From Folioceros fuciformis (taxonomy: Eukaryota): a stretch of 33,127 nucleotides of DNA. A program made the translations under genes and the position numbers. The notes beneath the pieces are model-generated. The model was not told where the DNA came from. It was given only the letters and a program-made list of their open reading frames with translations, and ran no database searches. Positions within the stretch are counted from its first letter, which is position 1. The number at the start of each line of letters is the position of its first letter. The stretch is from assembly GCA_049999805.1 (NCBI GenBank), contig JBNGIO010006279.1, positions 342,485 through 375,611 of the forward strand, in the 5' to 3' direction. Below, in pieces: positions 1,070 through 32,800 of the stretch.

Positions 1070-2193
1070 TCAACAATCCGCCTTCCTGAGAACTCTCTCC
1101 AGGAAAGTACCGACCACGTCTGAAGCTTGCTTCTCTAACGTTTCTTGAGTGATCTCTCTTTGCTTCAACACCTGCTTGCCAACTTTGAACGAGTGATCCC
1201 CGCCTTCTACGATGAAGACCTCGTTCAGACCCGTCATGGAGGCTCGGACATGGTCAAGCTTGTCCACAGGACACATGGGGTCCTTGCTTCCCTGGATGAA
1301 CAGGATCGGAAGTGAAAGATCCAGTAATGTCGAGTCCCGGAGAACTCCATTCGCACCCTGCCAACTCCCGGACCTATCAGCGTCTTGCAGAACTTTCGTG
1401 CTGCTCGCATTCAAGGAGCACAGAACTGTACGCAAGCAAAGGCGGAACAACCTTCAGAGGATAACCCAGACACACTACAGCCGCGACACCAGCCTGTTCA
1501 TTAGCCGCAACCATGCAACTCACCCTGTCGTCAAACCAATTCTGCAGCTGAGAATTGTGATTCAAGGAGGATGCGAGGTGCAGAGAAGACCAATATGAAA
1601 TACGAGCACAAAACCTGGAGCCCATGGACTTTCCAACCAGCACCACGGGATGTCCAGGATGCCTAGAAGCAGCCTTCTTTACTTGAGCAAGGTGGAAATC
1701 CACCAGCTTTTCAGCTTTAGGCGGAGCCCCACGCTTACCTCCAGCCAGATCTGCCACAGATGCACGTTGTCAGACACCTCATCCCCCAGCCCTGCCCTCA
1801 CGCATCACTTCCCGTGTGCACATTGAGGTTACATGGGTAATCGAAGGTAACAACCTCCACCGCGTTGGTAGCAGCGTTCAACAGCTCCGACCACCTGCTT
1901 GTAATCAAACATCAGGCACCCGCAGAGAAATATCCCATCGCCCCAGCAAGTCCTGACACTCACCTGATCATCCAGGGCGAGGACGAGGAAGCCCCAGCCC
2001 CATGTGCGAAAACCAGCAACGGAGTAGCATTGGCATGACCATCGCCATCCCCGTCACCATCACCATCACCCACCATAACCTGATCAAAGCAAACCTTGCT
2101 GCCCCCGGGCTGTGACTCATCATCGTGGTCTGAGCTGAGACGTGTGCGCTTCTCAGTCACGGCAACAGCACCTCTTTTTCTTTTAGAAGGCAT
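1070..2193 (-). CDS. KANSL3/TEX30-like alpha/beta hydrolase, 5 exons (2193-1964, 1894-1833, 1750-1615, 1524-1452, 1357-1070), about 262 aa
   Basis: Motifs LVFAHGAGA, TFDYPY, nucleophile elbow GKSMGSR, CLGYPL, LFIQGSKD and GGDHSF. All four introns are GT-AG and the exon phases join into one open frame. Confidence 0.85.
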
Positions 2194-7092: not shown

Positions 7093-8261
7093 GGCACCAA
7101 GAGACCTGTCAGACAGGAGGAGTCGGAGAGGAATCCTTGCAGAGAGGGTTTAACATATTTTAATGGTCCTCCAAGTTGGCCGGTGTTGTTGGTGAGGTGG
7201 TGGGAGGATGTGCTGGCCAGCGGCTAGTGCTATCCACAAGTGTTTCGTCCCACGTGGGCAATGCTACTGTAACGCAACATTCCAGGCTTGGCAGCTTTGG
7301 GCCGTGCATGTTGCCATTTGATGAGATATGTGATGGGTGGCAACTTGGTGCTGACACGCTTTTCGCTGTGACCGCGATGGGCCTGCCGCCTGGGCCATGA
7401 ACCGTCCCACTTCCACACGCCTAATTTGTCCTTGCCTCCCTCCTTGTGCGGAATGTATGATGCGGCTTCCAGCTTGTGGCCAATGGCCTCCGGCCACAGG
7501 CTACGTGAACCTATTCCCGAACCTTTCGAGAGGTGGGTCACCAGACTGCCCGCCAATCTCCGGCCAAGAGTCGCAATCCCTGTTTCACAAACATGAGGCA
7601 AGGCTCTCATGCTTCTGCACTGCTGTGTCACGCCTTGGTGAGCTCTCACGAGGTAAGGTGAGGTGAAGTGAAGTGAAGCTTGCCTTCTGCTGCCTTGAGG
7701 CGGCGGCCTTCCAGAGTGAAGGCTGAATCTGTCAGCAAGTCTTGCTGCTGTACCGTGGTGTGCCGTGTGCCCTTTTATGGAGCCCGGTAGATGAAGATCC
7801 ACTTACGCACACATGGTCGACAGTATGGATTCATGACCCGGGCTCAGCAGGTGGCGGGCGAGCGGGCTTCTTGGTTCTTGGTGAGCGCCTGTATCCCTGG
7901 CAGGTTTCTGGTGAGGCCTGTGGCCGAAGGTCGTGGGCTGCGGATTTGTGGCTATTTCTGGCTTATTGCGGGTGAGGGTGGTTCTGAAGAGAGAAGGGTC
8001 GGGGTAGTGAGTGCAATGCAATGCAGGATGTCTCTCTCCCGCTGACAATGCGGCGGATCTACAGATGAATGCCTGGATGGACGGATAGATGGATGGTCCG
8101 AGACTGTGGGTTTTGTTGGGTTTTTCTCGTGACTCTGGGAGTCGGTTTCTGTGCAGATCAGAGTGTGCGTAGTGGAATGCCGCATCTCTGCTGATGGTGG
8201 GTGGAATGGTTTGGAGGAGCAGGTGCTTCCGGGCGTGTTGTTGCTGTGGGCAGCGCTTAGG

Positions 8262-9413
8262 ATGTGTCAAGTAGCTTTGATGGATGCCAAGACGAGCGGC
8301 AGTGTGGGCAGCAGCACGGAAGAGAGTGATGAGATGCCGCAGGAAATATGGTGTGGGCTGCCTCAAGAAGTGCTGGAGAGGATCCTGCTGTTTCTGCCGG
8401 TATCGAGCCTGTGCCGATTCTGCGCAGTGAGCAAGAGGTGGAAGTCTCTGATTTCATGCTTGGATTTCGTGCAAGGGCGTGAACGGGTGAATTCATCCAA
8501 GCCTTGCTTCATGTTCGCAGGGTTTATGAGAACCAAGATGTTGACCATGGTTGACAGCAGCCTTCAGGGCTTTAGCTATGAGTGGCATCCTCAGCCCAAG
8601 TTGAATTTCCTGCCCTGGCCTGTCTTCTTGGTTTCTTCCTCTGAGGGTTTGCTGTTGTGTCAGAGTCGGCAGCATGATCATCTAGTCTGCAATCCTGTCA
8701 CACGTACGTGGAGGGCCTTACCTCCTGTACCTGATTTTGGCAAGCCTGGGTTTCCTGCACGCTCATGCTTGATCACAGACGTCCAGACCAGAGCTTTCAA
8801 GCTGATTCTGGCAAGGATCTTTCGACGGGGACGCTGGTCCTTTCTGCAGGTTTATGACTCCAAGCTGGACAGCTGGGACAAACCCATTCGACCGCCTGCA
8901 GAATTCAAGTTCTCAGCTCTGGCGGGTAGTGTTCCTATCTACTACAACGGGCTGCTCTACATTTCGGGTCGGGTCCTAAACCACCTGTCATCAGAAGTGG
9001 TTCTCACCTACAGCATCGAGGAAGGCGTGTGGAGTAGACTGCAAGCCCACAACTTGCCAGGCACGCAGATAGGGGGCTTTGTCGTCTGCGCCGGCAAGCT
9101 GCTCATGCTCAGATACGATGCCGACAAACTCAGCATGCGCATCTGGGAGCTTCACCAAGCACGAAGAATGTGGATAACAGTGGTCAATGTACCTTCTGAT
9201 CTCCTGAACGAGCTCAACATCAAGGACCCAACTCAAGAAATGCGCTTTTCTGGCTTGGGTGATCTGGTGTACTTCACATCCAATCAGGTTTTCAAAGTGC
9301 TCGTCTGCGATTATTCCAGAAGGCTCTGGTTTTGGCTGACTTTGTCAGCGCCATTTGGCCACCTCATGTTCCCTGTCCTGCCATTCACCTCAAGTTTGGA
9401 TCCTCGGCTCTGA
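8262..9413 (+). CDS. F-box protein with a C-terminal kelch/FBA-like propeller; single coding exon visible
   Basis: F-box IWCGLPQEVLERILLFLPVSSLCRFCAVSKRW, then SSEGLLLC, LVCNPVTRTWRALP, FKLIL, QVYDSKLDSW and IWEL. Start is ATG 8262 or 8280; upstream exons are not excluded. Confidence 0.88.
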   Translation: MCQVALMDAKTSGSVGSSTEESDEMPQEIWCGLPQEVLERILLFLPVSSLCRFCAVSKRWKSLISCLDFVQGRERVNSSKPCFMFAGFMRTKMLTMVDSSLQGFSYEWHPQPKLNFLPWPVFLVSSSEGLLLCQSRQHDHLVCNPVTRTWRALPPVPDFGKPGFPARSCLITDVQTRAFKLILARIFRRGRWSFLQVYDSKLDSWDKPIRPPAEFKFSALAGSVPIYYNGLLYISGRVLNHLSSEVVLTYSIEEGVWSRLQAHNLPGTQIGGFVVCAGKLLMLRYDADKLSMRIWELHQARRMWITVVNVPSDLLNELNIKDPTQEMRFSGLGDLVYFTSNQVFKVLVCDYSRRLWFWLTLSAPFGHLMFPVLPFTSSLDPRL

Positions 9414-10159: not shown

Positions 10160-13077
10160 TTACACCGACATTGTCAGGGAGAGATTACCTGCAACACTCT
10201 GACCTTCACCAATGTGTTTCAAACCTTCAACGACCTCGCTGGTCGCTGCATCCTGTCCTTCAACTTCTGAAGCAGGTTTTTTCCGAAACAGTGAGCTCAC
10301 ACTTTCAGAAACTCGACCCACGATACCTTTGCTGTCTGGGTCAGAGGGACTGGCAGGGCTGCGTGGGGAGGACCCACCCAAGCTCAAGCCTCCCAAAGTG
10401 TCGGTGATTTTCTGGGACAATGCCTTGTCATGTTCGTCAGGATGGAACCTGTCCGCAGCAGCATCTTTGGTGGAAACAACATACTCTTTGGCTTGCCCAA
10501 CACCCTGGCTCACCTTTTGAGTGAAGGGCACACATTCAGTATCAACCTCAGTGCTAATGCCTGTACCCATGCCAATACCAGTGTCAGTATCTGGCAGTGA
10601 GTCAGCCAGTGAGGTGGGCAGTTCGGATTGATCTGTCACAAATTTCGGGGAAGACGCGTAGCCTAGTTTTGATGCTATCGCGTCCTTTGCAGCGTATGCA
10701 GATTCCTGCACTCTCTGTGTCACAGAATTCTGTTCTGCGGTGCCAGTTGGAGTAGCACTGGTGTCCTGAGCACCAGCCCCGTATCCTATCTTGCCAGTCA
10801 CCGCACTCAGCGTCTCCTTGGCCTTGTCCGACCATGTTTTGCCGACTTCGGTTGCGGAGCCTGTGGTCTCTCTGTCCACCTGGGAGGACTCAGTAGTAGC
10901 GTTCGCTGCCTTCTCCTTCATTCCATACAGAGCGCCAACAGCAACCTCCTTGGCGTAATTCAGCCCTTCCTTCGCACGCTCTGTGTACGGTTTCTGCTGC
11001 TTCTCCTCAGAAGCGGCGATCAATTCAGTGGTGCCAGACTCCGTTTCTGTATCAGTATTACCTGTAACTGCTCCCACAACTTTATCCTTCGCATTGTAGA
11101 TGCCTTGTGTGGCACGCTCCGCGAACGGCTTCTGTTCCTCAGCAGCGGTAGTATCTTCGGACACAGCTCCTACAACCTTGTCCTTGACATTGTAGATACC
11201 TTCTGTAGCACGCTCTGCAAAAGGCTTCTGTTCCTCAGCAGTAGTGATATCTCCGGACACAGCTCCTACGACCCTGTCCTTCGCGTTGTAGATACCTTCC
11301 GTGGCACGCTCTGTGAATAACTTCTGCTCATCAACTCCAGACTCCGCTCCCGGGCTGCTCGTTACAGCACCCACCAGCCAATCCTTCGCATTGTAGGTAC
11401 CTTCGGTCGCACGTTCTGTCAAGGGCTTCTCCTGCTCCTGGTACGGTACATCCTCCCCTTCAATGTGGTGCTTCGCTGCCTCCGCCGACCCTGCCGCGGC
11501 AGCTGCCTCCTTCAGACGTTCGGTGAAGGGGAGATTATCTCTTCCAGCCGCTGCGGGCCCCTTGAATTCCTGCAGCAGACACCAAGAAGAGTGTCCATAT
11601 CTTCACATTATCATCATGAACGCCGTGGTTGAATGAACGAAGGTTTGAGTTAAGGACTGTCATGTTTGATGTATAAGTGAACTCACATTCTGATCCCTGC
11701 TGAACAGTCCCTGGGTTGCAGGATCGTGGAGAAGCGTATGGGGAACGTGCTCTCCACTCAGCTCACCGAGGTCACGAGAGATTCCAGCTGACTCCTGACC
11801 TGCAAAATCGATCCAAACACAAGAGTCAGCGACAATTCATTCTTCCTTTCCTTCCCCACTTCCAACACATGTCCCAAACAACACACCTTCAACTGAAAGC
11901 ACAGTCTTCTGCCTACTCCGGGTTTCCTCCTCGGAGGGAAGGGACGCAGCACCGTAGAAATATTGAGTGGGAACAGCTTGCAGAGTGTTCTCCGGGCCGT
12001 CGTTTCTAAACGGGCTGATGAACTTATTGCCATCACCATCGTCCTGGACCGAGGACTCAGACACCTGCCATCCACTATCACCCACTGCAGGAGCGGCAGG
12101 ATCTGGCACCCCACGGTCGGAGCTAATTCCTTCCTGCCCAGACACAGCCCTTGGGAACGAAGACCCCCCGTGCACCGCAGGGGCTGTAGCATCGGACTGT
12201 AAGCCTACATCCAACAGCATGGAAACATACCCCCCTATTAGGCTCACATGTGTCGCCCCTACAGACGTAGACTCATACCACTCCACACATCCATCCGTCA
12301 CTGCACTCCGTCTCCTCCGACTCCATTCCACCTACCCTTCTCGGAGTCGGGCGCAGAAAAGCAATCAACGACAGCCAATGTGTTTGTTTATCAGCGAAAG
12401 GCTTGGACAGACAAGCAAACCCGGCCAGACTGAGTGCAATACCTGCAGGACTCGAGGTAACGCTGAACTGCTCAGCCAGAGGATCCCCGTGTTGCTTGGG
12501 CAGCTGGGCGTACTCTCCCTGCAAAACCCACAGCACATAAACCTCGTCGCCCATTGCAGCCACCGCCGGTACCTCAATGCACACACCCACACTACCAGCA
12601 CACATGTCAATCTCACCTGCGAGGCAGCCTCGCTCTCATCTTCACTAGACGACGCAGAGCTGGACTCCTGCCCCGGCCCGCGGTCAGTGGCACCGCCAGA
12701 GCCGTCCTTGTCGGAGGTCCGGGCGTGGAGCTCTTTCTTCACCTTCGTTTTGAGCTTAGAAGTCTTGTCCTTGATCTTCGACATAAAAGACGACGACTTC
12801 TTTCCACTGGGGCTCTGCACCTCCGGCACACTCGTGTCCAGCCTCTGCTCCGACTCTGCAGACGTCAACCCCGTCGCTCGCTCAGCTGATTCAACGTCGC
12901 CCACACCCAACATTCACTCACATTCTCTAACCCACAAACCGCATTGCACTACCCTTCCACGAATTCCACCACCCAAAACCCACCGGGAGTGAGCTGCACG
13001 GAGTCGGAGTCATCGTAGGCCCGGATGGCGCCTTCCGGGGCCTGGGGAGCCGGGAATCCTGACTGGTACTGCGCCAT
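10160..13077 (-). CDS. LTI65/RD29B/CAP160-like dehydration/ABA-responsive hydrophilic protein, 6 exons (13077-12984, 12885-12617, 12518-12443, 12204-11887, 11799-11687, 11569-10160), about 759 aa
   Basis: Lys-rich N-terminal KKSSSFMSKIKDKTSKLKTKVKK; PGEED-like motif PDEHDKALSQKITDTL; C-terminal GIVGRVSESVSSLF; LEA-like repeats KPFAERATEGIYNAKDKVVGAV. GT-AG junctions give a phase-consistent frame. The internal exon borders are my prediction. Confidence 0.75.
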
Positions 13078-15074: not shown

Positions 15075-16636
15075 ATGCCGAAAGCAGTGCCCGCTAGATG
15101 GCCACACATTGTCAGCTGGATGCCATGTGTACCCAACAAATTGGTGGCTATGCAGGGATTCTACGAGGCGTTCCCGCTCCCCGCATGTTATGTAGTCACT
15201 TGCTGGCAAGAAAGCAGGCCTGGAGAAGCAGCAGTGGAAACAGCTCAGCAGTTCAAGGAAAACGTGTGGCTGGGAAGGAATGCTCAGCGATGCTCGTCGC
15301 CAGGAGCAGGAGTTCTTGTGGAGACATTTGTTTCTGGACCCTACCATGTGGTGGGATGTCCGGCGAGGTAAGAGCAGCTCCCGTTCCCCTGACTGTCGGC
15401 GGAAGGGGTCCGGCGAGGTCCTCTGGTTAGACAGCGTTCTTAAGCAGCGTGGGTGGATGAGCAGCTTGTTGCTTTGACTGTGCACATGGGGGATGGTGCT
15501 TCGCCTTCCAAGTCCAGATTTTGGGATAAGGATGAGCCTTGCGGGCCCGCTGGATCCGAGATGGGCGTCAGGGCTTGCACCGTCAGCATGTTATGTGAGC
15601 AGGAAAGGCTTGCTGAGGCTGTTGGAGCGCTGGAATTCCTGGTGGAGACAGACTGTCCTGTCTCTCAGTCTCTGGTTATGACATTGTGACAAAACAATGT
15701 GCAGCTAAGAAGGATCTGGTTCTTGGGCGACAGGTGCATGATCTGTCTGTCAAGCTAGGGTACGACTCAAATGCATTCTTGGGGAATCATATCTTGCGCA
15801 TGTATACATGTGTGGGCAGGTTACCAGAGGCCATGGATGTGTTCGCCAGGGTGGGCAAGCCAAGTGTCTTCATGTGGTCGTCCACCATCTCCGCATATGC
15901 TAAGCATGGGAAACCTGATAAGGCCATACAACTTTTGCATGAGATGCGTAGCTGGGCTCTGGAGGTTCGCTCTGCGTGAAGAAATGGAGGAAGAGGGCCT
16001 GGTTCTGGCTAACCATTTCACCGTTGCCTGCCTTCTGAAGGCCTGTGCAAGTGCTGGTGCCTTGCAGAAGTGCAGAGACCTGCAACCACAGATTGTGGAA
16101 AGAGCGCAGCTACGAGGTGACATTGTGGTGGGTAACCGCCCTGGAGGACATGTATGCGAAGTGCGGGGAACTGCAAGAGGCACGCAAGGTGTTTGACAGT
16201 TTGGCCAGACAGGATGTGGTGACATGGACGGCCTTAATAGGCGGGTATGAACAGAAAGGGCTCTAGTAGAGGCGCTTGTATTGTATGAGAAAATGGAGCA
16301 GGAAGGCCTAATTTTGCCAACAGCTTTACTTTCGCTTGCCTGCTGAGGGCCTGTGCAAGCGCTGGTCTTCAGCAAACGGGCAAGCAGCTTCACTCACAGA
16401 TTGTGGAAAGAGGACAGCTGCAAAGTGATATTGTGTTAGCGACTCCCTGGTGCACATGTATGCAAAATGCGGGGAACTGGAAGAAGCACGCAAGGTCCTT
16501 GACTGTTTGACCCGTTAAGATGTGGTTACCTGGACAGCCCTGATAGCTGGATGTGGTACGCGTCATGGTCACAACGCACTAGCATGCTCTCAGGAAATGT
16601 TCGATGAGGGCATTCAGCCTAACGATGATACTTTAG
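15075..16636 (+). pseudogene. PLS-PPR pseudogene with an N-terminal OSB-type PDF motif; related to the two downstream PPR genes, 3' truncated
   Basis: Fragments in shifting frames: LWRHLFLDPTMWWDVRRGKSSSRSPD..., TVSMLCEQERLAEAV, AFLGNHILRMY, MYAKCGELQEARKVFD, GIQPND. Several frameshifts and stops; no E domain. The start is approximate. Confidence 0.85.
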
Positions 16637-18064
16637 GGTTACTTTAGGGACCCTCAGCAACCACCAGGATACGTGCCCCAGCCACAGGTTTCAGACGTTC
16701 GTCAACTTCACACTACGTTTCACTGACCAAATCACACAATTTATCAAGCCATTTCTGTGCAACAGGAACTTGAACTTGGTCCAGAATACAATGGGCAACG
16801 ACAAATCATTCTTCGCCAGTAATGGCGCTTCATCAGACAAGGGCACCTGGGCCGTCGACTAGGTTAGCTGGATGTGCTGCCACCTCCTCTTAACCATCTC
16901 AGAGTGTCTACGGCTGGGGTTCAAAAACATAAGGAAACAAAAGGATTTGAGACGGAAAGAAAACAGGAGTCACCAGCGTAGCCTCACGAGAGAGTTTGGT
17001 CCTCGCGAGAAGGAGCTCGCCGAAAAGGAGAGTTCGTCTAGCACGAGAGAACCATCAACCTTTCCAGATGATGGATGAACCTAACACGCGAGAGGACAGA
17101 TCTCAAACCCAAGCGGCTGGGAAAGATAGCGAACCTACGCCAGGAAATTACTCTTGCGGCACAGAGGATGTCTCACCGGATGGTGCTACACCTCAGCTAC
17201 CTGAACGACACTCGTTCGAACCCTTCCCGAGCTGATTGAGCCGTGAGGTTTTTCGGCACAAGGACTGCAATGACTTTGACACCCGATCCGGTGTGCTGCG
17301 GCTATTCGTCATCAAAGATGCTGAGAGGAACATCTTTCATGTAACAAAGCGCAGAGTCACTTTGGCACCCTCGTAGAGACGCCTTCACATCATCTGTGAG
17401 GAGCCCGGATTTTCCAGGTGCATAGCACGCAAAAGCGCAGCCTCGCGCGACACTCCAGACAGAAAGGCCTGTATGTAGAACATGGGCATGGAGCTGATCA
17501 ATGTTCTGCAGCTATACACATGCAAGACATTGAGACGGATCTTCCATGCAACAAAGCGCAGACTCAGTTTGGCACCTTCGTAGAGGCATCTTCTCAATGA
17601 TGTATGGAGAGCCCGGATATGTCAGGTGCATTGCACACTGCGAAGATAGCACAGACAAACGAGAACATCAAACACAACACGGCAACGCAAACGATACTGC
17701 GCGGCCAGCCACCCGGCGTTGCAAACCCAGAAGCTGCATCCCCAGGCAGCGCACTGTAACCTATCAACAAGACGTGCCATGAAGTGAAATATATACATAC
17801 ACGAATGTCATTAGGTTATCCTATATCGTTCATGACAGGACTGACAAGCGCGAAATGTCCTGAGCCCTAAACTTGACACTTGAACTTCCACCAAAGCAAA
17901 CCTGCTCTGTCCGCGTGCTCCACCTTTACTCGTCTGTACTAATCAGTTAAGAAAGACGACCATGACATGAAAAGATCTATCCTTCGCACACTTAAAGAAC
18001 TCTTTTTCTGCTTCTACTCATCCCTCTGTTCGTTTAGGAAAAGCTCTACTCTAGCCCAGCTTGA

Positions 18065-21000
18065 CTATGGGTGGGAGGACTGATCGTCCTCCCCAACCAA
18101 AAAACTATGGACCAGTCCGTCATCATCTGTCCACCAGCTCTGACCTGGGTTCTTCCAGGCTCTGATCCTTTTTCTCCTTGATTGTATCTTCTCTGCCCGT
18201 TTCAACATCTGGGCACTGTTGTAAAGGTTCGACATCAACAAATATGCTGCACCATCGTACTTGTCTAGCTTCACTGCTTCATTGAAAGCATGGCGTCCCA
18301 CGTCGACATTGCTCCACTTTCTACAAGCACTCAACAGAGTTTGCCAAACCGCCGTACTAGGAAGTACAGGCATATTGCTTATAAAGAACAATGCCTCATC
18401 CAGTTGCCCTGCACGGCCCAGAAGGTCAACAATGCATGTGCAGTGCTTCTCTGTGGGAGTTATGCCGTACTGTCTGCTCATAGCTTCAAAGTAATTCCGT
18501 CCCTCGTTCACTAGACCTGCATAACTGCACACTGTTAATATGCTAAGGAATGTTATGCTGTTTGGCTGTATGCCATCCTCTTTCATTCTACGGACCAATT
18601 CGAACACTACTTCACTGTCTCCTTGACAAGCATAGCCTGCAAGCAGCACATTCCAGAGAACAACGTCTCTTGCTGGCAATTCATCAAAGACCTGTAGTGC
18701 ATCAATCATGCTCCCGCACTTCCCATACATGTGAATCAAACTGCCAGCTACAATCGGATCAGCTTGCAGCCCTTGTTCTACGATCTGTGCATGTAGCTGC
18801 CTTCCCAGATGCAAAGCTGCCACATTTGCACATGCCTGTAGGAGGCACATGAGTGTTACAGAGTCAGCAATGTGCATGCCGTCTTCTTGCATAGCTCTGT
18901 AAAGATGCAGGGCCTCCTGACCCATACCCTGCTGGGAATATCCTGCTATCATAGCATTCCATGCCACAAGATTTTTTTGGCCAAGTCTGTCAAACACACT
19001 CTGAGCATCTTGCAAACTGCCACACTTTGCATACATGCTGACCAAACTGCTGGCTATAAAGGCATCGGTTTGATATCCTCGGTCTCTGATTTCCAAATGA
19101 AGTTGCCTCCCATTATCCAAGGCCAGGGTACCTGCACTTGCACATGCCTGCAGGAGGCACACATACGTCATGGAATCTGGTCCAACCATGCCTTCTCCTT
19201 GCATCGCAGCGTAGAGACAAAGCGCTTCCTTCCCCATGCCTTGCTGGGAGTACCCTGCTATCATGGCATTCCACACCGCAACGTCCTTTTGACCAAGTCT
19301 GTCAAATACTCTCCGGGCATCGTCCAAGCTGCCACATTTTACAAACATATTTACCAGACTGTTGGATACAAACACGTCAGCTTCAAACCCATGTTTTCTG
19401 ATTTGAGCATGAAGACGCTTTCCCTTCTCCAGCGCAGGGATGCCCACACTGGCACATCCCTGCACGAGACATCCAAATGTTATGGAATTGGGTGAGTCCA
19501 TGCCTTCAAACACTCTCTGAGCGTCGTCCAAGCTGCCACACTTTGCATACATGTTCACCAAACTATTCGCTACAACCAGATTTTGTTGATGTCCTTCTTC
19601 TATGATTTGTGCATGAAGCTGCTTTGCCATCTGCAACGCTGGTGCGCCCACACTTGCACAGGCCTGGAGGAGGCACACAAATGTCACAGAATCTGGTACA
19701 GCCATACCTTCCTCTTGCATAGCACTGTACAGGAGAAGAGCTTCTTGCTCCATTCCATGCTGCGAATACCCTGCTATCATGGCAGTCCAGCTCACAATAT
19801 CTTTCTGACCAAGCCCGGCAAACACTCTCTCGGCATCTTCCACACTGCCACACTTTGCATACATGTTCACCAGACTGTTCCCTACAAACCCATCAGCTAA
19901 ATGTCCTCCGTGTACAATTTGTTCATGAAGGTCCGTCCCTGTCTTCAGCGCTGTGGTGCCCACACAAGCACATGCCTGCAGGAGGCACACGAATGTCAGA
20001 GAATCAGGTACAGCCATGCCTTCTTCTTGCATAGCATCGTAGATGCGGAGTGCTTCCTGTCCCAAACCCTGCTGCGAATATCCTGCAATCATGGCAGTCC
20101 ACGTCACAACATCCTTTTGCCCAAGTCCATCAAACAATCTCTGAGCACCTTCCAAGCTGCCACACTTGGCATACATGTTCACTAAACTGTTGGCTACAAA
20201 CACATTAGCCTCAAGTCCTCTTCCTACGATTTGCCCATGAAGCTCCATCCCCTTCTCCAACGCCAGGGTGCCCACACTAGCACATGCCTGCAGGAGGGAA
20301 ATGAATGTCACCGAATTGGGTAGAGCCATGCCTTCCTCTTGCATAGCACTGTGTAGACGAAGGGCTTCCAGGTACATACCTCGCTGGGAATACCCTGATA
20401 TTAATGCAGTCCACGCAACCACATCCTTATGAACAAGTCCATCAAACACTCTCTGCGCGTCCTCCAAGCTGCCACACTTGGCATACATGTTCACCAGACT
20501 GTTGGCCACAAACACTTCGCCTTCTTGTCCTCTTTCTCTGACCTGCACATGAACCTGCCTCCCCTTCTCCAGAGCCAGGGTGCCGACACTCGCACAAGCC
20601 TGCAGGAGGCACACAAATGTCATGCAGCTTGGTACAACCATGCCCTCATCTTGCATGTCATTGTACAGATCCAGGGCTTTCTGCCCCATACCTCGCTGGG
20701 AATATCCTGCTATCAAAGTAGTCCATGTCACCACATTCTTCTGACCCAGGCAGCCAAACACTCTTTCAGCGTCCCCCAAGCTGCCACACTTTGCATACAT
20801 GTTCACCAAACTGTTACAGACATGCAAATCCGGCTCAACGCCACTAGCAAGCAAATCAGCATGCACCTGCTGCCCAGATTTCAAATCGTATCCCCTTGCA
20901 CAAGCCTGGAGAGCTGCCACAAACACGTGGCCATCTGGGTTTGCACTCGACCTCCGCATCTGATGATACAGCTCTATGGCCTGCTTGTCCTCTCCATGCT

Positions 21001-21838
21001 TAACATGCGCAGAAATCATAGAAGACCACATGAACGCATCTGGTTCAACAACACCATTGAACACCTCCTTCGCTTCTTTCAACCTGCCATGAAGAGAATA
21101 CATCTGTAGTATGTGATTGCACAGGAAAGTGTCCGCCTGGTACCCTTTTCTCACCGCGAAAGCATGAACACGGCTGCCTGAAACAAGATCCTTCTCCAAC
21201 ACACATCTCTTCAACAGAGTATAAAATAAAAATCTGGAAATGCCAGTAGCCGTCTGCACCAGCACTTCCAAAGCTTCAACAGCCTGAGAGAGATGGCCCT
21301 CATCACACAATTTGCTCACAGTTTCAGCTGTCACGTCCCGGTCGTCGCTTGCAGGCCTGCAATCCCCGGGACTATCCGCCAAGCCCCTGTCGGACACACA
21401 GCGACCACTCCACAGGTCCAGAGCAGCCAGCTGCGCATCCACCCAACCTGGCTTGTAAAAGCTGTCCAACCAGAGAACCTGATGGGACTGCTTGTGTCGG
21501 AAGTCAGGGGACCTACGGCTCTTCTTAGTTCTCCTGTGATCCCACCAAAGTGAGGGGTCACCAAAGAATTGTCGCCACAGATTCTCCTGGCGCCAACGTT
21601 CCCAGGATCTGTCGCCAGTGACCGCTTCTCTTGCACCGGCTTCCTTTCTTGTGAGGGTGCCACTGATGCACCTCTCGCATTGTGTCCCGGTAGAGTGCTC
21701 GTTCTTTGATGTTAGATGACAAGGAGCTCCTCCTGCAGTAGCCGTCTGGCCACCACATGGTTGGGTCCACGGACCCAGTCCCCACAAAGAATTTCCTTGC
21801 ACTTTTCTCGACCAAATTTCCACGCTCACGACAGCCAT
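18065..21838 (-). CDS. PLS-class PPR protein (about 28 motifs) with N-terminal PDF motif and E1-E2-E+ (WW-type PG box); putative organellar RNA-editing factor, 1257 aa, intronless
   Basis: Long ORF with P-L-S triplets (NSLVNMYAKCGS / VVTWTAMIAGYSQQG / VTFVCLLQACA), P2-L2-S2, E1 (WQTLLSACRKW) and E2 (AYLLMSNLY), ending KNPGQSWWTD..VHSFLVG...HP. Confidence 0.95.
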   Translation of the reverse strand: MAVVSVEIWSRKVQGNSLWGLGPWTQPCGGQTATAGGAPCHLTSKNEHSTGTQCERCISGTLTRKEAGAREAVTGDRSWERWRQENLWRQFFGDPSLWWDHRRTKKSRRSPDFRHKQSHQVLWLDSFYKPGWVDAQLAALDLWSGRCVSDRGLADSPGDCRPASDDRDVTAETVSKLCDEGHLSQAVEALEVLVQTATGISRFLFYTLLKRCVLEKDLVSGSRVHAFAVRKGYQADTFLCNHILQMYSLHGRLKEAKEVFNGVVEPDAFMWSSMISAHVKHGEDKQAIELYHQMRRSSANPDGHVFVAALQACARGYDLKSGQQVHADLLASGVEPDLHVCNSLVNMYAKCGSLGDAERVFGCLGQKNVVTWTTLIAGYSQRGMGQKALDLYNDMQDEGMVVPSCMTFVCLLQACASVGTLALEKGRQVHVQVRERGQEGEVFVANSLVNMYAKCGSLEDAQRVFDGLVHKDVVAWTALISGYSQRGMYLEALRLHSAMQEEGMALPNSVTFISLLQACASVGTLALEKGMELHGQIVGRGLEANVFVANSLVNMYAKCGSLEGAQRLFDGLGQKDVVTWTAMIAGYSQQGLGQEALRIYDAMQEEGMAVPDSLTFVCLLQACACVGTTALKTGTDLHEQIVHGGHLADGFVGNSLVNMYAKCGSVEDAERVFAGLGQKDIVSWTAMIAGYSQHGMEQEALLLYSAMQEEGMAVPDSVTFVCLLQACASVGAPALQMAKQLHAQIIEEGHQQNLVVANSLVNMYAKCGSLDDAQRVFEGMDSPNSITFGCLVQGCASVGIPALEKGKRLHAQIRKHGFEADVFVSNSLVNMFVKCGSLDDARRVFDRLGQKDVAVWNAMIAGYSQQGMGKEALCLYAAMQGEGMVGPDSMTYVCLLQACASAGTLALDNGRQLHLEIRDRGYQTDAFIASSLVSMYAKCGSLQDAQSVFDRLGQKNLVAWNAMIAGYSQQGMGQEALHLYRAMQEDGMHIADSVTLMCLLQACANVAALHLGRQLHAQIVEQGLQADPIVAGSLIHMYGKCGSMIDALQVFDELPARDVVLWNVLLAGYACQGDSEVVFELVRRMKEDGIQPNSITFLSILTVCSYAGLVNEGRNYFEAMSRQYGITPTEKHCTCIVDLLGRAGQLDEALFFISNMPVLPSTAVWQTLLSACRKWSNVDVGRHAFNEAVKLDKYDGAAYLLMSNLYNSAQMLKRAEKIQSRRKRIRAWKNPGQSWWTDDDGLVHSFLVGEDDQSSHP

Positions 21839-21978
21839 TCCTCGTCATCAAAACTTACAGATGAGCCACAAGCGATTTGACTTTCATGACTGTATCGAAT
21901 CTGTGATACAATCCATGAAACCTTTCAATGTAACTGGTCCGTAGTCTTCACTCTAGAGCCTGCTTCGTCCTGCAAGCA

Positions 21979-24900
21979 ATGAAAGTCGGGAGCTTTGCAA
22001 GTGAGTCATGCAGAGGTCAAGGGGACCCGTTGTGGGGACAGTTCTCGTGGACCCAGGGAAATTGTAATGCAGGAATTGTGGGAAGAGCCTCTAGGGGACT
22101 GACTTCAAGGAACCAACTGTCGGCACACAACCAATGCGGCGTGTCTAACACCTTATCCAGGAAGCCAGCCCGTCCAAGAGGATGTCTGACTGACGGCAGA
22201 AGCTCCAGTGAGAAGAAATTGAGGCGACAACATTCTCTGGACTCCACGCTTAGCAGGCAAAAGGAGAAGAGCAGTCGTTCTCCTGAGTCCCAGAGGAAGG
22301 AGACACAAGAGGTCTTCCGGTTAAACAATCTACGGAAATCAGCTTGGGTGAATGCACACATTCCTATTCTGGACATTGTGATGGGTCGTCGTGCCTCTGA
22401 CAGCAGCTTACAGGATAATCCTGGCACTTGCAGGCCTGCACGTGACGATAGGGTCGTGACGGCTGAAACCGTGAGCAAGCTATGTGATGCTGGCCTTCTC
22501 GCTGAAGCTGTCCAGGCTTTGGACCTTCTGGTTCAAACAGACCGCGGTATTTCTAAATCTCTCTTTTACACAGTTCTGAGGCAATGTGTGGTGAAGAAGG
22601 ATGTCGTTTTGGGTAGCCGTGTTCATGCTTTCGTGGTGAGAAAAGGGTACCAGGCAGATACTTTCCTGTGCAATCATATCCTACGGATGTATGCTTCTCA
22701 TAACAAGTTGCAAGACGCAATGGAGGTGTTTGATGCTGTTTGTGAACCGGATGCATTCATGTGGTCTTCTATAATTTCTGCGCATGTTAGACATGGAGAA
22801 GACAAGCAGGCCTTAGAGCTGTATCATCGCATGCGTAGGTCCAGGGTGAAGGCAGATGGGCATGTGTTTGTGGCAGCCCTTCAGGCTTGTGCAAGGGGAT
22901 TAGACTTGAAATCTGGGCAGCAGGTGCATGCTGACATCGTGTCCAGTACGGTGCAGCCTCATCTGTTTGTGTGGAACTGCCTGGTAAACATGTATGCAAA
23001 ATGTGGCAGTTTGGAAGAGGCTCAAGGAGTGTTTGACGGACTGTGTGAGAAAGATATTGTGACATGGACTACCCTGATAGCTGGATATTCCCAAAAGGGT
23101 ATGGGGCGGGAAGCCCTTACTCTCTTCAGTTCTATGCAAGAGGAAGGCATGGCTGTACCGAATTCCATCACGTTTGTGTCGCTCCTGCAGGCGTGCGCCA
23201 GTGTGGGCACCCTGGCGTTGGAGAGGGGAAAGCAGCTTCATGCACAACTTCGAGCTGCTGGACACGAAGATGATGTGGCTGTGGCCAACAGCTTGGTCAA
23301 CATGTATGCTAAGTGTGGCAGCTTGGAGGACGCTCATAGAGTCTTTGTTGGACTTGGGCAGAAGGATGTGGTGACGTGGACCACAATGATAGCAGGATAT
23401 TCCCATCAGGGCTTGGGCCAGAAGGCCCTGTGTCTCTACGATGCTATGCAAGAAGAGGGAATATCCGTACCCAATTCTGTAACATTTGTTTGCCTCCTGC
23501 AGGCGTGCGCAAGTGTGGGAAACCTGGCGTTGGAAAACGGGAAGCAGCTTCATGCTCAAATCAGGGAAGGAGGACATGACGCGGATATGTTTGTAGCGAA
23601 CAGTTTGGTGAACATGTATGCTAAGTGTGGGAGCTTGGAAGCTGCTCAGGAGGTGTTTGATGGACTTGGTCAAAAAGATGTGGTCACATGGACTGTTATG
23701 ATAGCAGGCTACTCCCAGCAGGCCATGGGCTCTAAAGCCCTTCATTTTTACACCGCTATGCAAAAAGAAGGCCTGGCTGTACCCAATGCTGTGACATTTT
23801 TATGTCTCCTGCAGGCATGTGCAAGTGTTGGCACCCCAGCTCTGGAGACGGGTAAGCAGCTTCATGCCCAAATCAGAAGAGGAGGATACCTGGCTGATGT
23901 GTTTGTGTGCAACAGCTTGGTGAACATGTATGCAAAATGTGGCAGTCTGGAAGACGCTCAGACACTGTTCAATGGACTTGGTCAAAAGGATGTTGTGACA
24001 TGGACTTCTATGATTGCGGGATATGCCCAGCAGGGTATGGGACTTGAAGCCCTTAGTCTCTACAGTGTTATGCAAGAGGATGGGGTGGCTATACCCGATT
24101 CAGTGACTTTTGTGTGCCTCCTGCAGGCATGTGCAAGTGTTGGCCCCTTGGCATTGGAGAAGGGGCAGCAGCTTCATGACCAGCTCAAAGAAAGAGGCCA
24201 TCACCCTGATGTGGTCGTAGCCAATAGTCTGGTGAACATGTACGCAAAGTGTGGCAGCCTGGAGGATGCTCAGTGTGTGTTCGATGGACTTATTGAAAAA
24301 GACGTCGTGACGTGGACTGTGATGATAGGAGGATATTCCCAGCAGGGCAGGGGGTTGGAAGCCTTAAGTCTCTACAGTGCTATGCAAGAAGATGGCATGG
24401 TTGTACCCGATTCCGTGACATTTGTGTCGCTCTTACAGGCATGTGCATGTGCGGGATCCCCAGCATTGCAAAAGGGGAGGCAGCTTCATTTGGAAATCAA
24501 ACAACGCGGACACCAAGCTAATGGGTTTGTAGTGAACAGTTTGGTGAACATGTATGCAAAGTGTGGCAGCCTGGAGGATGCTAAGAGAGTGTTTGACGGA
24601 ATTGGACAAAAGGATGTGGTGGCATGGACTGCGATGATTGCAGGATATTCCCAGCAGGGCAGGGCCCAGGAAGCCCTTCTTCTCTACAGTGCTATGGAAG
24701 AGGAAGGGGTGGCTATACCAGATTTTGTTACTTTTGTATACCTCCTCCAGGCATGTGCGAGCATGGGCAGCTCAGCACTAGAGAAGGGGAAACAACTCCA
24801 TGAGCAAATAAGGGAACGAGGATTTCAAGCTCATGGTTTTGTAGCCAACAATTTGGTCAACATGTATGCAAGGTGTGGCAGTTTTGAAGATGCACAGAGA

Positions 24901-26340
24901 GTCTTTAAATGCATGGCCGTACCGGACTCCGTGACATTCGTGTGCCTCCTGCAGGCATGTGCAAGCGTGGGCACCGCCGCCTTGGAGACGGGGAAGCAGC
25001 TTGATGTGCAAATCAGAGACAGAGGAATTCAAGGTGATGTGTTGGTGACTAACAGTTTGGTGAACATGTACGCAAAGTGTGGCAGTTTGGATCATGCTCA
25101 GAGAGTGTTTGATGGACTTGACAAAAAAGATGTAGTGACTTGGACTGCCTTGATAGCAGGGTATTCCCATCAGGGCATGGGGCGAAAATCCCTTCTTCTC
25201 CACAGTGCTATGCTAGAGGAAGGCATGACTGTTCCCGATTCTGTGACATTTGTTTGCCTCCTGCAGGCATGTGCAAGTGTTGGCAGCCTGGCGTTGGAGA
25301 AGGGAAAGCAGCTTCACGCGCAGATCAAGGGATGGGGGTATCAATCTGATGTGGTTGTAGCTAACTGTTTGGTGAACATGTATGCAAAGTGTGGGAGTCT
25401 GGAAGATGCTAAGAGAGTATTTGATGGGCTGGGCCAAAAGGACGTGGTAACGTGGAATGCCATGATAACAGGATACTCTCAGCAGGGCATGTGGCAAGAG
25501 GCCCTTTGTCTTTACAGCGCCATGCAAGCAGGGTGCGTGGCTGTGCCCGACTCCGTGACATTTGTGTCCCTTCTACAGGCATGCGCAGATGTGGCAGCTT
25601 TGAATGTGGGAAGGCAGATACATGCCCAGATTGTAGAGCAAGAGCTTCAATTGGACTTGTTCGTAGCTGGCAGTCTGATTCACATGTATGGAAAGGCTGG
25701 GAGCATGGTTGATGCACAGCAGGTGTTTGATTCGTTGCCTGAACGAGATGTCGTCGTCTGGAATGCACTGATCGCAGGCTACGCCTGTGAAGGAGCTACC
25801 GAAGTGGTGTTGGCCTTGGTCAAGAGTATGAGGGAGGATGGCATATGCCCAAACGGTGTCACATTCCTTAGTGCTTTAACAGTGTGCAGTCATGCAGGCT
25901 TAGTGGACGAAGGGTGGCAGTACTTCGAGACTATGAGCAGACAATTTGGCATCAGTCCCACAGAGAACCACTACACATGCATGGTGGATCTCCTGGGTCG
26001 TGCAGGACAACTGCATGAGGCCCTACACTTCATAAAGACAATGCCTATACTCCCCAATACTGCGGTATGGCACACTCTGTTAGGTGCTTGTAGAAAGTGG
26101 AACAACGTGGAGGTGGGACTCCAGGCTTTCAGGGGAGCAGTGAAGCTAGACAGGAAAAATGTCGCAGCACATGTGTTAATGTCAAACATTTACATGGGTG
26201 CCCAAATGTGGGAGCAAGCAGAGCAGATGCAGGCCAGGAGGAAACGGATCAGAGCATGGAAGACGCCAGGTCAGAGCTGGTGGACAGACGAGGACGGACT
26301 AGCGCACAGCTTTCTGGTTGGTGATGACAAGCATTCCTAG
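21979..26340 (+). CDS. PLS-class PPR protein (about 34 motifs) with E1-E2-E+ (WW-type PG box), 1453 aa, intronless; paralog of 18065-21838
   Basis: Same architecture with two extra triplets; ends KTPGQSWWTDEDGLAHSFLVGDDKHS. Confidence 0.95.
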   Translation: MKVGSFASESCRGQGDPLWGQFSWTQGNCNAGIVGRASRGLTSRNQLSAHNQCGVSNTLSRKPARPRGCLTDGRSSSEKKLRRQHSLDSTLSRQKEKSSRSPESQRKETQEVFRLNNLRKSAWVNAHIPILDIVMGRRASDSSLQDNPGTCRPARDDRVVTAETVSKLCDAGLLAEAVQALDLLVQTDRGISKSLFYTVLRQCVVKKDVVLGSRVHAFVVRKGYQADTFLCNHILRMYASHNKLQDAMEVFDAVCEPDAFMWSSIISAHVRHGEDKQALELYHRMRRSRVKADGHVFVAALQACARGLDLKSGQQVHADIVSSTVQPHLFVWNCLVNMYAKCGSLEEAQGVFDGLCEKDIVTWTTLIAGYSQKGMGREALTLFSSMQEEGMAVPNSITFVSLLQACASVGTLALERGKQLHAQLRAAGHEDDVAVANSLVNMYAKCGSLEDAHRVFVGLGQKDVVTWTTMIAGYSHQGLGQKALCLYDAMQEEGISVPNSVTFVCLLQACASVGNLALENGKQLHAQIREGGHDADMFVANSLVNMYAKCGSLEAAQEVFDGLGQKDVVTWTVMIAGYSQQAMGSKALHFYTAMQKEGLAVPNAVTFLCLLQACASVGTPALETGKQLHAQIRRGGYLADVFVCNSLVNMYAKCGSLEDAQTLFNGLGQKDVVTWTSMIAGYAQQGMGLEALSLYSVMQEDGVAIPDSVTFVCLLQACASVGPLALEKGQQLHDQLKERGHHPDVVVANSLVNMYAKCGSLEDAQCVFDGLIEKDVVTWTVMIGGYSQQGRGLEALSLYSAMQEDGMVVPDSVTFVSLLQACACAGSPALQKGRQLHLEIKQRGHQANGFVVNSLVNMYAKCGSLEDAKRVFDGIGQKDVVAWTAMIAGYSQQGRAQEALLLYSAMEEEGVAIPDFVTFVYLLQACASMGSSALEKGKQLHEQIRERGFQAHGFVANNLVNMYARCGSFEDAQRVFKCMAVPDSVTFVCLLQACASVGTAALETGKQLDVQIRDRGIQGDVLVTNSLVNMYAKCGSLDHAQRVFDGLDKKDVVTWTALIAGYSHQGMGRKSLLLHSAMLEEGMTVPDSVTFVCLLQACASVGSLALEKGKQLHAQIKGWGYQSDVVVANCLVNMYAKCGSLEDAKRVFDGLGQKDVVTWNAMITGYSQQGMWQEALCLYSAMQAGCVAVPDSVTFVSLLQACADVAALNVGRQIHAQIVEQELQLDLFVAGSLIHMYGKAGSMVDAQQVFDSLPERDVVVWNALIAGYACEGATEVVLALVKSMREDGICPNGVTFLSALTVCSHAGLVDEGWQYFETMSRQFGISPTENHYTCMVDLLGRAGQLHEALHFIKTMPILPNTAVWHTLLGACRKWNNVEVGLQAFRGAVKLDRKNVAAHVLMSNIYMGAQMWEQAEQMQARRKRIRAWKTPGQSWWTDEDGLAHSFLVGDDKHS

Positions 26341-27482
26341 GTCACCATGCTGAACCTGACAAATGAACGCGGATTTGTGCCACATTTCCACCGAACCTCG
26401 GGAGACACAGGACATGAAACTGGCTCACTCCCGTCCTCATTAAGGGAGATCCCCAGAATTAGCACACGTCTCATCTCATGAGCGGGAAGCAAAGCAAGTC
26501 CATCGGTCGTCGGCCAAGTTTGTCATTCTAGCCCCAACTTTCCTGACGACCCATGACACATACATACCAATTCAGCTGAGGATGAGGTGGCATGGAGCCG
26601 GTTGTTGGGTATATACTCTCAGCAAGGGCTTGGTCGAGAGGACTCTTGTTTGATATGGGAGAGTGCAGGCAGCTGCACCCACATACTCTGGGAAGGACTG
26701 CCACCTATCACACTGGTTGGCACCTGGCTGGCTGGCGGACACGGATCAAAATGAGGTGGGCTGGGAGCAGCAACGCCGAGGCTTTGACAGGTTGGCCACA
26801 AGAAATGTTTGAAGCTGGAGCTGCAGCGATTGAGCAGCTCTGAAGAGTCCCTAGCAGGGGAAGCCGACCGCTTTTGCTGCAGGGCCCTCAGCTAGATCCA
26901 ACAACGCCCACGACTTTGTAGTCTTCAATCAGGGTTCCTGAACACGTAGTACAGACGGGTTACTTCTCAGCTCTGGACGTCGCTGCGAAGCAGAGTCGTG
27001 AGCAAAATAGAGAAAGAGGACATGTAGAGGATGTGTAGCAGTAGCTGCTCATCCAGCTTCGGCACGGGAGCACAAAAGCAGTGCTTGATGTATATAGCCC
27101 GGCCCTCAAGTTCATCAGGCCACCAGATGTAGGTCTACGTGCTCTTAGGGTCCGTGTGGTGAACGTCTTCTACGTCCTCCAGCCCTTCGTGTTCCTTTCA
27201 TCTATATACAAAATCAATAAGTAATAATTGTATTAAGCAATAATTATACTAAATAGCTGTTTACTTTCATTCACAGGTCGCAGTCAACCCCAAAATGTAT
27301 CAGAGGCAGATGCGGTTGGCCTCATAGCGAGACAGTTGGTTGTTCTTGAGCAGTTTTTGAGCTTGCCGAAATTGTGTACAGTCTCTCCTAACTCGGAGAA
27401 CGGATCCGCTTCGTCAGAAAACAGTAATTGGGAAACGAACTACGTGTGCAGCCCTTCTAAATACTGGGTCATACCAGCGCGG

Positions 27483-29306
<1,824 letters not shown>

Positions 29307-29406
29307 NNNNNNNNNNNNNNNNNNNNNNNNNNNNNNNNNNNNNNNNNNNNNNNNNNNNNNNNNNNNNNNNNNNNNNNNNNNNNNNNNNNNNNNNNNNNNN
29401 NNNNNN
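29307..29406. other. Assembly gap (100 N), interrupting RPT2
   Basis: Run of exactly 100 N. Confidence 0.99.
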
Positions 29407-29501
29407 CGTCCAAGTGCTAATTTCTCGGTTTCTTCATTATAATACCCTTGCTGGGCCGACCGTCATTTCCGACCCTTTGGACATGACCACCATTTACCAA
29501 C

Positions 29502-31741: not shown

Positions 31742-32004
31742 AGCATTAGAATGCACGTAGAAGGAAGGTATGAGGGTGAGGAGGTAGGGTTGTCAATTTA
31801 GGCATCCTTTAAGGAATAGGATGAATAGGAAGTTGGTTAGGTGAAACAAACCCTCAAGGTCAAAGGGGAGGTAGGGTTCTCAAACTAGCCATCTTTTAAA
31901 CAATAGAGGTAGAGTAGGAAGTTGGAAGTTAGTTAGCCGAATCAAAGGTAGAATAGGAATTTAGAAGTTGGTTAAGTAGAAGTACAAACCCTCAAGTTCA
32001 ACAA

Positions 32005-32800
32005 TGTTGAAGGTCTCCAATCTGATTTCCTCGCCACAACTGTTTTTCGAAATGCATCCATCCACCTCACAAGATCTTCTGTGGTTGCTTCCTTGGTAAG
32101 TACCCAAGCCACCGGTATACCATTAAAATGGTCATCAAAAGCAACCACTGCAAACATTTGATACCTATATTTGTTGACCCTGAAGGTTGAGTCCATAGCC
32201 AAGCAGTTATTATGTTCGTGCTTCACACAAGCATCCAACATGAACAGTGTTTGGAAGCCAAGACAAAACCAAGCTTGATGATTGTGGAGCACAAATTACC
32301 AGTGATTGTGAATTACGTAAGTTTGAAGGTCCATAAGCACACCATAACCTGTATAAGAACAGACATTGTGAGACACAAGGCATCAGCTGAAGTGTCTCAC
32401 CAAGATTGAGTGGCTCAGACCTTGTGAGTTTGCAAGCTGTATCGTGTTTGGGAAATAGAGGTCCCCGAACAACAATTGCGTTCTTCCTACTGCTCACCAC
32501 AGAATAGCTTGTGGGAGCTTGAGACAACTCTCCCATCCCTGTAATGAAATCTGGTACACGCATCCACGGGATGAAAGCTTTCCGCATTTCCTTCTACACA
32601 CTTGGCGCAGGACTGTGTTTGTATTTGCTGCATTTCCAGTCGAGAGCAATAACATCAAACAAACCAAGCGGCACACTCTACACCACAAACGGGCAATTTG
32701 CGGGCATTTTCGCAGACATTAGACCCCACTTTCAGCAGTTGCCTTCAAGCAGCGAGGCAACTTCAATTTTTGGCATAAACGAGTTCAAGCCGTCCAGAAC
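32005..32800 (-). mobile_element. Second MULE transposase remnant, truncated within the DDE core
   Basis: FCLGFQT...CLAMDSTFRVNKY...VAFDDHFNGIPVAWVLT...WRPS aligns with the 5064-5534 transposase. The upstream limit is approximate. Confidence 0.8.

Follow-up and report, generated by a model that had tools for sequence, protein, structure and literature searches.

An OSB-type PDF motif ahead of an editing-type PPR protein of Folioceros fuciformis, and a family of proteins with the same arrangement

Gene B and its cluster

The window analysed here is a stretch of 33,127 nucleotides (nt) of Folioceros fuciformis DNA (contig JBNGIO010006279.1). Its central feature is gene B, which encodes an editing-type PPR protein carrying, ahead of its repeats, the PDF motif of the OSB proteins. 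Three PDF-PPR copies are present in the window, namely gene B, gene C, which has a decayed motif, and the pseudogene A.

Gene B (18065..21838, minus strand) is an intact open reading frame (ORF) of 1257 uninterrupted codons and encodes a protein of 1257 residues. Its parts are, in order, an N-terminal presequence, the PDF motif, a linker, a PLS-class PPR array, an E motif and an E+/PG-box end. There is an in-frame stop two codons 5' of the ATG, and the next methionine after the start is residue 244 or later, so translation from this ORF takes in the PDF motif. Residues 1-84 (21587..21838, minus strand) are unconserved and predicted to be disordered, and form a putative organelle-targeting presequence; residues 1-77 comprise 15 Ser/Thr and 18 Ala/Gly and have a net charge of +2. 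The PDF motif itself, ENLWRQFFGDPSLWWDHRRTKKSRRSPDFRHKQSHQVLWLDSFYKPGWVDAQL, occupies residues 85-137 (21428..21586, minus strand; envelope of the profile hidden Markov model (HMM), 21416-21592) within a folded unit predicted at about residues 75-145. Residues 138-170 (21329..21427, minus strand) comprise the end of the C-terminal helix of the PDF domain and then a probably flexible linker to the first PPR helix. The initial annotation had located the motif at 21420-21597, and the peptide that it quoted corresponds to residues 85-137, inside that span. Its placement of the motif on the N-terminal side of a PLS-E+ PPR array also holds, as a single uninterrupted ORF connects the motif to the first PPR helix at around residue 171. 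At the level of the DNA, the PDF-PPR fusion in gene B is thus genuine. An independent public run (X1) contains contigs that match 21463-21832, 20978-21290 and 17861-18811 exactly and colinearly; these matches back the DNA sequence in an independent data set, and are not counted for transcription or for lack of splicing.

The repeats of gene B match the Pfam models PPR_2 (4.4e-126, 12 stretches) and PPR (3.3e-107, 17 stretches) and are arranged as tandem P/L/S repeats with a triplet periodicity of 312 nt (104 residues). The E motif, at residues 1175-1235 (18134..18316, minus strand), matches PF20431 E_motif at 1.6e-12, above the curated cut-off, and is followed by the E+/PG-box end and by the stop codon at 18065-18067 (minus strand). 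The C-terminus reads ...PGQSWWTDDDGLVHSFLVGEDDQSSHP, which is a PG box, and the protein terminates in ...HSFLVGEDDQSSHP, without a DYW cytidine deaminase. In agreement with this, the Pfam model DYW_deaminase (PF14432) found no match in the gene B protein. When the DYW C-termini of five relatives were compared with the DNA by tblastn, their alignment at gene B was confined to the PG-box end (18068-18193); downstream of the gene, nothing credible as a remnant of a DYW domain was found. The Pfam Eplus_motif model did not match the gene B protein at E<=1, so the E+ assignment rests on the PG-box end. Judged by these features, gene B is a PLS-class PPR protein of the E+ subgroup. No SSB or OB family was found at E<=1 in the whole protein or in its first 169 residues, and Pfam matched no family at all over those 169 residues. 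The PDF motif has no Pfam model.

With regard to the origin of the motif, a phmmer search with 67 residues (21413-21613, minus strand) against 1.84 billion cluster representatives returned 605 proteins at E<=1e-3; of these, 165 reach E<=1e-10 and 15 reach E<=1e-30, and many have 2-13 matched stretches. Among the named matches are 'protein OSB1, mitochondrial-like' (Populus, 8.9e-19), 'Protein OSB3, chloroplastic/mitochondrial' (Anthurium, 2.3e-17) and 'OSB1, mitochondrial-like' (Drosera), and in the named OSB matches an SSB/OB domain (PF00436) precedes the PDF motif. Word-index searches with the same 67 residues, and with residues 1-200 of gene B, gave no match; as the exhaustive phmmer search finds hundreds, this blank reflects the sensitivity limit of the index. 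Because circularity with PPR proteins was to be avoided, a profile was built from 279 PDF instances in 131 matches without PPR similarity. In a six-frame scan of the window, this non-PPR PDF profile matched the motif of gene B with an independent E-value (i-E) of 5.4e-22 and 66 bits, and the score was 66-70 bits over the window and protein scans. The alignment shows that gene B keeps every hallmark of the motif: LW, F, P, WWD.R, K, PDF.HK, LWL and P.WV. These scores, far beyond chance, identify the motif as truly homologous to the PDF motif of OSB proteins. The initial annotation had recognized an OSB PDF motif here and had asked for a profile comparison with such motifs; the comparison gives a significant match, and the named OSB1 and OSB3 matches and the hallmark alignment lead to the same identification.

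The best phmmer match, P0002 of Kingdonia uniflora (1160 residues), has an SSB-like domain at its C-terminus and 13 PDF stretches, far above the copy number of 1-5 given for OSB proteins in the available text of PMC13393729.

Gene C (21979..26340, plus strand; 1453 residues) is a head-to-head paralog of gene B with the same PLS-E+ end. The two arms are an old inverted duplication, with inverted repeats that are 76% identical. The start codons of the two genes diverge and are separated by 140 bp (21839-21978), so their promoters or 5' untranslated regions must be either shared or very short. Aligned from the first methionine, the N-termini are 40% identical, and the PPR parts are 69% identical in amino acids. 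The synonymous divergence (dS) between the genes is ~0.8, and the ratio of nonsynonymous to synonymous divergence (dN/dS) is 0.21 in the PPR-E part, 0.52 in the motif and 0.76 in the presequence. The value of 0.21 indicates that the PPR part has been under purifying selection since genes B and C split. In the decayed motif of gene C (22222..22377, plus strand), the LW, WWD, PDF and LWL positions are gone and ...SAWVNAHI... alone is kept. The non-PPR profile recovers it in the window scan only over 22255-22371 (i-E 0.0038) and does not match the gene C protein, and its aromatic residues number 2 versus 12 in gene B.

A third PDF motif (…FLWRHLFLDPTMWWDVRRGKSSSRSPDCRRKGSGEVLWLDS…) lies at the head of the pseudogene A, at 15298..15438 on the plus strand (i-E 1.9e-15, 45 bits), in an ORF piece spanning 15196-15477. 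Gene A (15307..16635, plus strand) is a truncated, frameshifted PDF-PPR pseudogene in broken ORF pieces, placed tail-to-tail with gene B. It is colinear with residues 84-295 of gene B over three reading frames (tblastn: frames 1, 3, 2, then 3, 1), and PPR fragments continue to ~16635. The comparison of the three copies indicates that the ancestor of the cluster had a PDF motif, which gene B kept intact over a long time, and that the local cluster is turning over, with one intact copy, one decayed motif and one pseudogene.

This turnover could mean that the motif is a local relic, functional in the ancestral family, and that gene B is unexpressed or its motif now unused. One frameshifted pseudogene and one decayed motif among three copies would fit this explanation, as would the divergent ATGs merely 140 bp apart and the fact that no run recorded as RNA was found. 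Nevertheless, gene B has kept its 1257-codon ORF and all the hallmark residues despite the dS of ~0.8 accumulated since the B/C split, its PPR part shows a dN/dS of 0.21, and its motif scores 66-70 bits against the OSB-derived profile. We consider a local relic improbable.

The PLS triplets of genes B and C form 312-nt tandem arrays at 19506-20815 and 22982-25598. These comprise 4.2, 6.2 and 2.2 copies with 75-77% matches, which is unusually uniform for a PPR tract and suggests either gene conversion or a recent internal duplication. A weak alignment to the start of the DYW region of a Sphagnum relative (…HS*VTMLN…ERGFVPH; E 1.9e-4 for the whole high-scoring segment pair) continues beyond the gene C stop codon, at 26221-26385 (plus strand), and may be the trace of a lost DYW domain.

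Distribution and origin of PDF-PPR proteins

The arrangement of gene B is not restricted to the window. Among the 150 phmmer matches listed for the motif, 14 combine PDF and PPR, with the PPR array always downstream of the motif. Of nine long matches examined with Pfam, seven are PPR proteins, one of them having a DYW deaminase as well; the remaining two comprise a kinesin and a protein that contains SSB. A whole-protein search with gene B gave 120 listed relatives, 118 of them new beyond the motif search. Identity to gene B is at most 51% in all 120, so the source organism is not closely represented among them. The non-PPR PDF profile matches 27 of the 118 new PPR relatives (E<=0.01): 21 exhibit the full-length motif at E<=3e-20, three lack its first half and have the remainder at the N-terminus, and three match weakly (1.7e-7, 2.5e-4 and 1.2e-3).

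Counts per taxon were made by hand from the names among the 120 relatives listed, the prefix 'Gb_' being presumably Ginkgo. The motif is present in 12 of 15 rows of Diphasiastrum, in 3 of 4 of Calypogeia and in 3 of the 4 named rows of Sphagnum. In Adiantum capillus-veneris it is clear in 1 of 17 rows and weak in 2 more, and it is found in 0 of 9 rows of Ceratopteris and in 0 of 18 rows of seed plants. Further PDF-PPR members belong to Selaginella, Pteridium and several Sphagnum species. Of the 41 other fusion proteins, 40 have the motif, in 1-3 copies, ahead of the PPR-similar region, the exception being P0203, where a faint motif match overlaps that region. Liverwort, Sphagnum, lycophyte and fern proteins thus share a recurring order of presequence, 1-3 PDF motifs, PLS array and E motif with or without DYW, and several members possess a full DYW deaminase (P0099, P0081, P0231). 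The residues conserved in the PPR-linked motifs are the same as in OSB motifs.

The chimeric PDF-PPR-E+ family postulated in the initial annotation is borne out by the 14 fusions among the 150 listed matches, by the 27 motif-bearing proteins among the 118 listed relatives and by the 41 other fusions, and on these counts the family is much wider than had been supposed. The accompanying statement that standard PLS-E/DYW factors carry no such domain stands for seed plants (0 of 18) and fails for Diphasiastrum (12 of 15), Calypogeia (3 of 4), Sphagnum (3 of 4) and the DYW-bearing members.

These data also bear on the idea that the resemblance is due to chance, or that an OSB gene and a PPR gene were joined by an artefact of assembly or annotation. 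The database does contain PDF fusions, such as those of Coptis P0033 and Striga P0042, that may be merged gene models, which lends this idea some plausibility. We reject it as exceedingly improbable for gene B: the E-values are 1e-17 to 1e-22, an ORF that runs without interruption in the raw DNA does not depend on a gene model, three copies are present in the window, and the contigs of the independent public run cover 21463-21832 exactly. In addition, at least six named genera (Calypogeia, Sphagnum, Diphasiastrum, Selaginella, Adiantum and Pteridium) each show this order of parts independently.

The two database cases are as follows. In P0033 of Coptis chinensis, the PDF motif lies in a gene model that is joined to a kinesin motor. 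P0042 of Striga hermonthica (1063 residues) exhibits PDF and an SSB domain under the source name 'Interactor of constitutive active ROPs 2'. Both may be merged neighbouring gene models rather than real fusions.

A tree was computed from 134 motifs over 65 columns, including 90 OSB-type motifs, one per protein, sampled from 353. PPR linkage is strongly clustered on this tree, with 8 changes versus a mean of 37.4 after shuffling, and none of the 500 shuffles (0/500) gave a value as low. The motifs nearest to that of gene B are those of two PPR proteins and of the pseudogene A.

Gene B and the OSB proteins share a PDF motif of ~50 residues whose conserved positions coincide and which is present in 1-3 copies whether the context is OSB or PPR; both are nuclear-encoded and presumably organellar. 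They differ in that the OSB motif is C-terminal to an SSB-like OB fold, whereas that of gene B is N-terminal to a PPR array. Membership of the OSB family needs both an OB/SSB domain and a PDF motif according to PMC13393729, in which PPR proteins are mentioned 0 times. An OB/SSB domain was tested for in gene B and is absent, which places gene B outside the OSB family; by its domain content it is not an OSB, and the PDF motif alone is held in common.

Flowering-plant PLS-class E+ editing factors resemble gene B in their PLS array, E motif and PG-box end without a deaminase; the CRR4-type proteins are E+ examples that act with a DYW protein in trans. These factors are not described with an N-terminal PDF motif, and none of the 18 listed seed-plant relatives has one. 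Gene B differs further in the unusual uniformity of its 312-nt PLS triplet repeats. A PDF/OSB motif joined to PPR, PLS or DYW proteins is not described in the full-text literature searched, a provisional result with subscription journals and supplements outside its scope. We provisionally regard the PDF-PPR proteins as new, in that a known repeat-protein class and a known motif are combined in an undescribed, conserved arrangement.

Predicted fold and possible role of the PDF domain

In order to locate conserved positions, the first 300 residues of gene B were aligned with 35 fusion proteins (36 in total). Ahead of the PPR array, the columns of W88, R102, D112, F113, L122 and W123 are invariant, and conservation is 90% or higher in those of F92, P95, W98, D100, K105, P111, K116, P130, W132 and V133. 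Across the 36 fusions, no consensus residues occur ahead of the motif. AlphaFold2 was run on this alignment. It models residues 81-140 of gene B with a predicted local distance difference test score (pLDDT) of 91-98, whereas residues 1-70 score 34-47 and residues 141-170 score 47-67, with values below 50 at 147-161. The predicted elements are a helix at 75-93, short strands at 98-100, 113-115 and 121-122, and a helix at 132-144; the PPR helices are predicted to begin at residue 171. Modelled alone, the PDF motif adopts the same fold (mean pLDDT 89.7, predicted template modelling score 0.76). The structure prediction that the initial annotation had recommended therefore yields a confident small domain. 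According to the models, the PDF motif would form a domain of ~65 residues that folds by itself, is basic and rich in aromatic residues, and has disordered flanks. A look-up of residues 70-150 of gene B in the ESM Atlas gave no usable match.

The PPR-linked motifs differ from the OSB motifs in being more basic, more aromatic and of one uniform internal spacing. Their mean net charge is +2.65 versus -0.58 in 353 OSB-type motifs, with +4 in gene B, and they contain 9.5 aromatic residues on average versus 7.9, with 12 in gene B. The spacing from LW to P.WV is identical in 39 of 43 PPR-linked motifs, the other 4 not matching the pattern, and it is 4, 5 or 6 in OSB-type motifs.

We consider that the PDF domain is, with a probability slightly above even, an accessory single-strand nucleic-acid grip that aids the RNA affinity of the gene B editing factor. 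The gene B product would be a nuclear-encoded, presumably organelle-targeted editing specificity factor without a deaminase of its own. If a targeting peptide takes up the first ~70-80 residues, the PDF domain would become the N-terminus of the processed protein. As the repeats of a PPR tract run parallel to the bound RNA, the N-terminal one lying at the 5' end, the PDF domain would sit just 5' of the sequence-specific footprint. There, it could grip single-stranded nucleic acid non-specifically, which would increase affinity or dwell time, or keep the target unfolded. Deamination would be carried out by a DYW protein supplied in trans.

In this role, the PDF domain would resemble the N-terminal RRM of maize PPR4 as a helper built into the factor itself. 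That protein, like gene B, exhibits an accessory nucleic-acid-binding module ahead of its PPR tract (available text of PMC9459714); unlike gene B, it is a P-class splicing factor, and its RRM is unrelated to PDF. A PPR protein with a fused N-terminal RNA-binding domain is nevertheless the closest functional analogy that can be offered for gene B. The extra domains of PPR proteins named in the available part of a review on Physcomitrium are RRM, SMR, NYN and LAGLIDADG. The MORF/RIP, ORRM and OZ proteins, which help editing in trans in flowering plants, possibly do the same job as the PDF domain, that is, help a PLS protein to hold RNA, but they are separate polypeptides of unrelated families. 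A broader and rather doubtful proposal is that PDF-PPR is an ancient architecture which predates the split of liverworts, mosses, lycophytes and ferns. The PDF domain would then be a single-strand clamp in cis on editing factors, doing the job of the MORF/ORRM-type helpers of flowering plants or physically coupling editing to single-stranded DNA (ssDNA) at organelle genomes in transcription or recombination, and would have been lost, or replaced by such helpers, toward seed plants.

The PDF motif, of ~50 residues, is described as sufficient for, or responsible for, ssDNA binding in AtOSB1 in the available portions of PMC6963530, PMC4166229 and PMC6451138, all of which cite Zaegel 2006. This activity could also serve DNA anchoring. 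In such a case, PDF would keep its ssDNA preference and tether the editing factor to nucleoid ssDNA, where the PPR tract would meet nascent RNA co-transcriptionally; transcription bubbles, R-loops and replication or recombination intermediates are the proposed targets. DNA anchoring would be in line with the sufficiency of the motif for ssDNA binding and the preference of OSB1 and OSB2 for this substrate (PMC6963530, PMC4166229, available text), and with the hallmark residues common to the OSB and PPR contexts. It would also be consistent with the existence of the Selaginella PDF-PPR protein P0141, although no OSB was detected in Selaginella moellendorffii according to the available text of PMC4166229. 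On the other hand, the more basic and more aromatic character of the PPR-linked motifs indicates that specificity may have shifted, and flowering-plant editing factors work without such an anchor. We regard DNA anchoring, both as a tether and with respect to these targets, as rather unlikely.

A third explanation, which we consider improbable, is that PDF is a protein-protein module which does not bind nucleic acid, but oligomerises or recruits a trans DYW deaminase, an OSB or another PDF protein. E+ proteins of flowering plants need a partner deaminase, and the predicted compact, aromatic-rich unit on flexible tethers would suit such a function. The tetrameric state of AtOSB2 (PMC6963530, available text) is also compatible with oligomerisation. 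However, the motif is also found in members with a complete DYW domain of their own (P0099, P0081, P0231), so deaminase recruitment cannot be its general role, and ssDNA binding is the sole activity of the motif in the published texts available.

Several results weigh against an RNA-affinity role for the domain, the main ones being the ssDNA preference of OSB proteins and the decay of the motif in gene C. The available text of PMC4166229 states that OSB1 and OSB2 prefer ssDNA over double-stranded DNA or RNA, which fits anchoring in the nucleoid better. The long ORF of gene C is intact despite the loss of the hallmark and aromatic residues of its motif, so the motif is dispensable in at least some copies, which counts against an indispensable role; between genes B and C, moreover, the motif changed faster than the PPR part (dN/dS 0.52 versus 0.21). 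The motif of the Selaginella protein P0141 starts at residue 1-4, and those of P0273 and P0287 likewise start within a few residues of the N-terminus, which leaves no room for a presequence unless these gene models are truncated. On the tree, the PPR-linked motifs are not one clade, and the starred branches force at least three changes. Finally, when the PDF-only model was compared with PDB structures by Foldseek, 4 matches were obtained, the best with an E-value of 6.2, and a phmmer search of PDB sequences with the motif gave 0 matches; with no PDB analogue by fold or by sequence, the structure gives no independent hint of function. Taking both sides together, we rank help with RNA affinity first, as somewhat probable, followed by nucleoid or ssDNA anchoring, which is possible but less probable, and then by protein interaction and a local relic, each of which has only a small probability.

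PPR editing factors are among the largest land-plant gene families and serve as a chassis for designer RNA editors, and how the factors of early-diverging lineages gain high affinity without the helpers of flowering plants is still discussed. As PDF has no Pfam model, surveys of the Pfam type may have missed a conserved, foldable, basic, aromatic-rich domain that heads many factors. The PDF motif is also widened from the signature of a small OSB family to a portable module, one that would have survived in Selaginella, for which a survey reports no OSB (PMC4166229, available text). If PDF raises RNA affinity, synthetic PPR tools could take it up as a ready-made part; should it bind organellar ssDNA, RNA editing would become linked to nucleoid biology.

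Surroundings of the cluster

The other features of the window were assigned from Pfam matches. At the left end are the end of a protein with an FGE-sulfatase domain (3-791, plus strand) and an alpha/beta hydrolase exon (1070-1450, minus strand), followed by an F-box/beta-propeller protein (8151-9413, plus strand) and a repeat-rich LEA-like stress protein (10160-11422, minus strand), which matches HSP9_HSP12 and LTI65 repeats. On the other side of the cluster, a split AAA ATPase gene is located at 27949-29416 (minus strand); its translation appears to resemble a proteasome RPT subunit. A run of N near 29.3 kb marks an assembly gap. MULE transposase fragments flank the PPR cluster at a distance of several kb, at 5064-5534 (minus strand, Pfam 7.2e-12) and 31972-32295 (minus strand, 1.6e-8).

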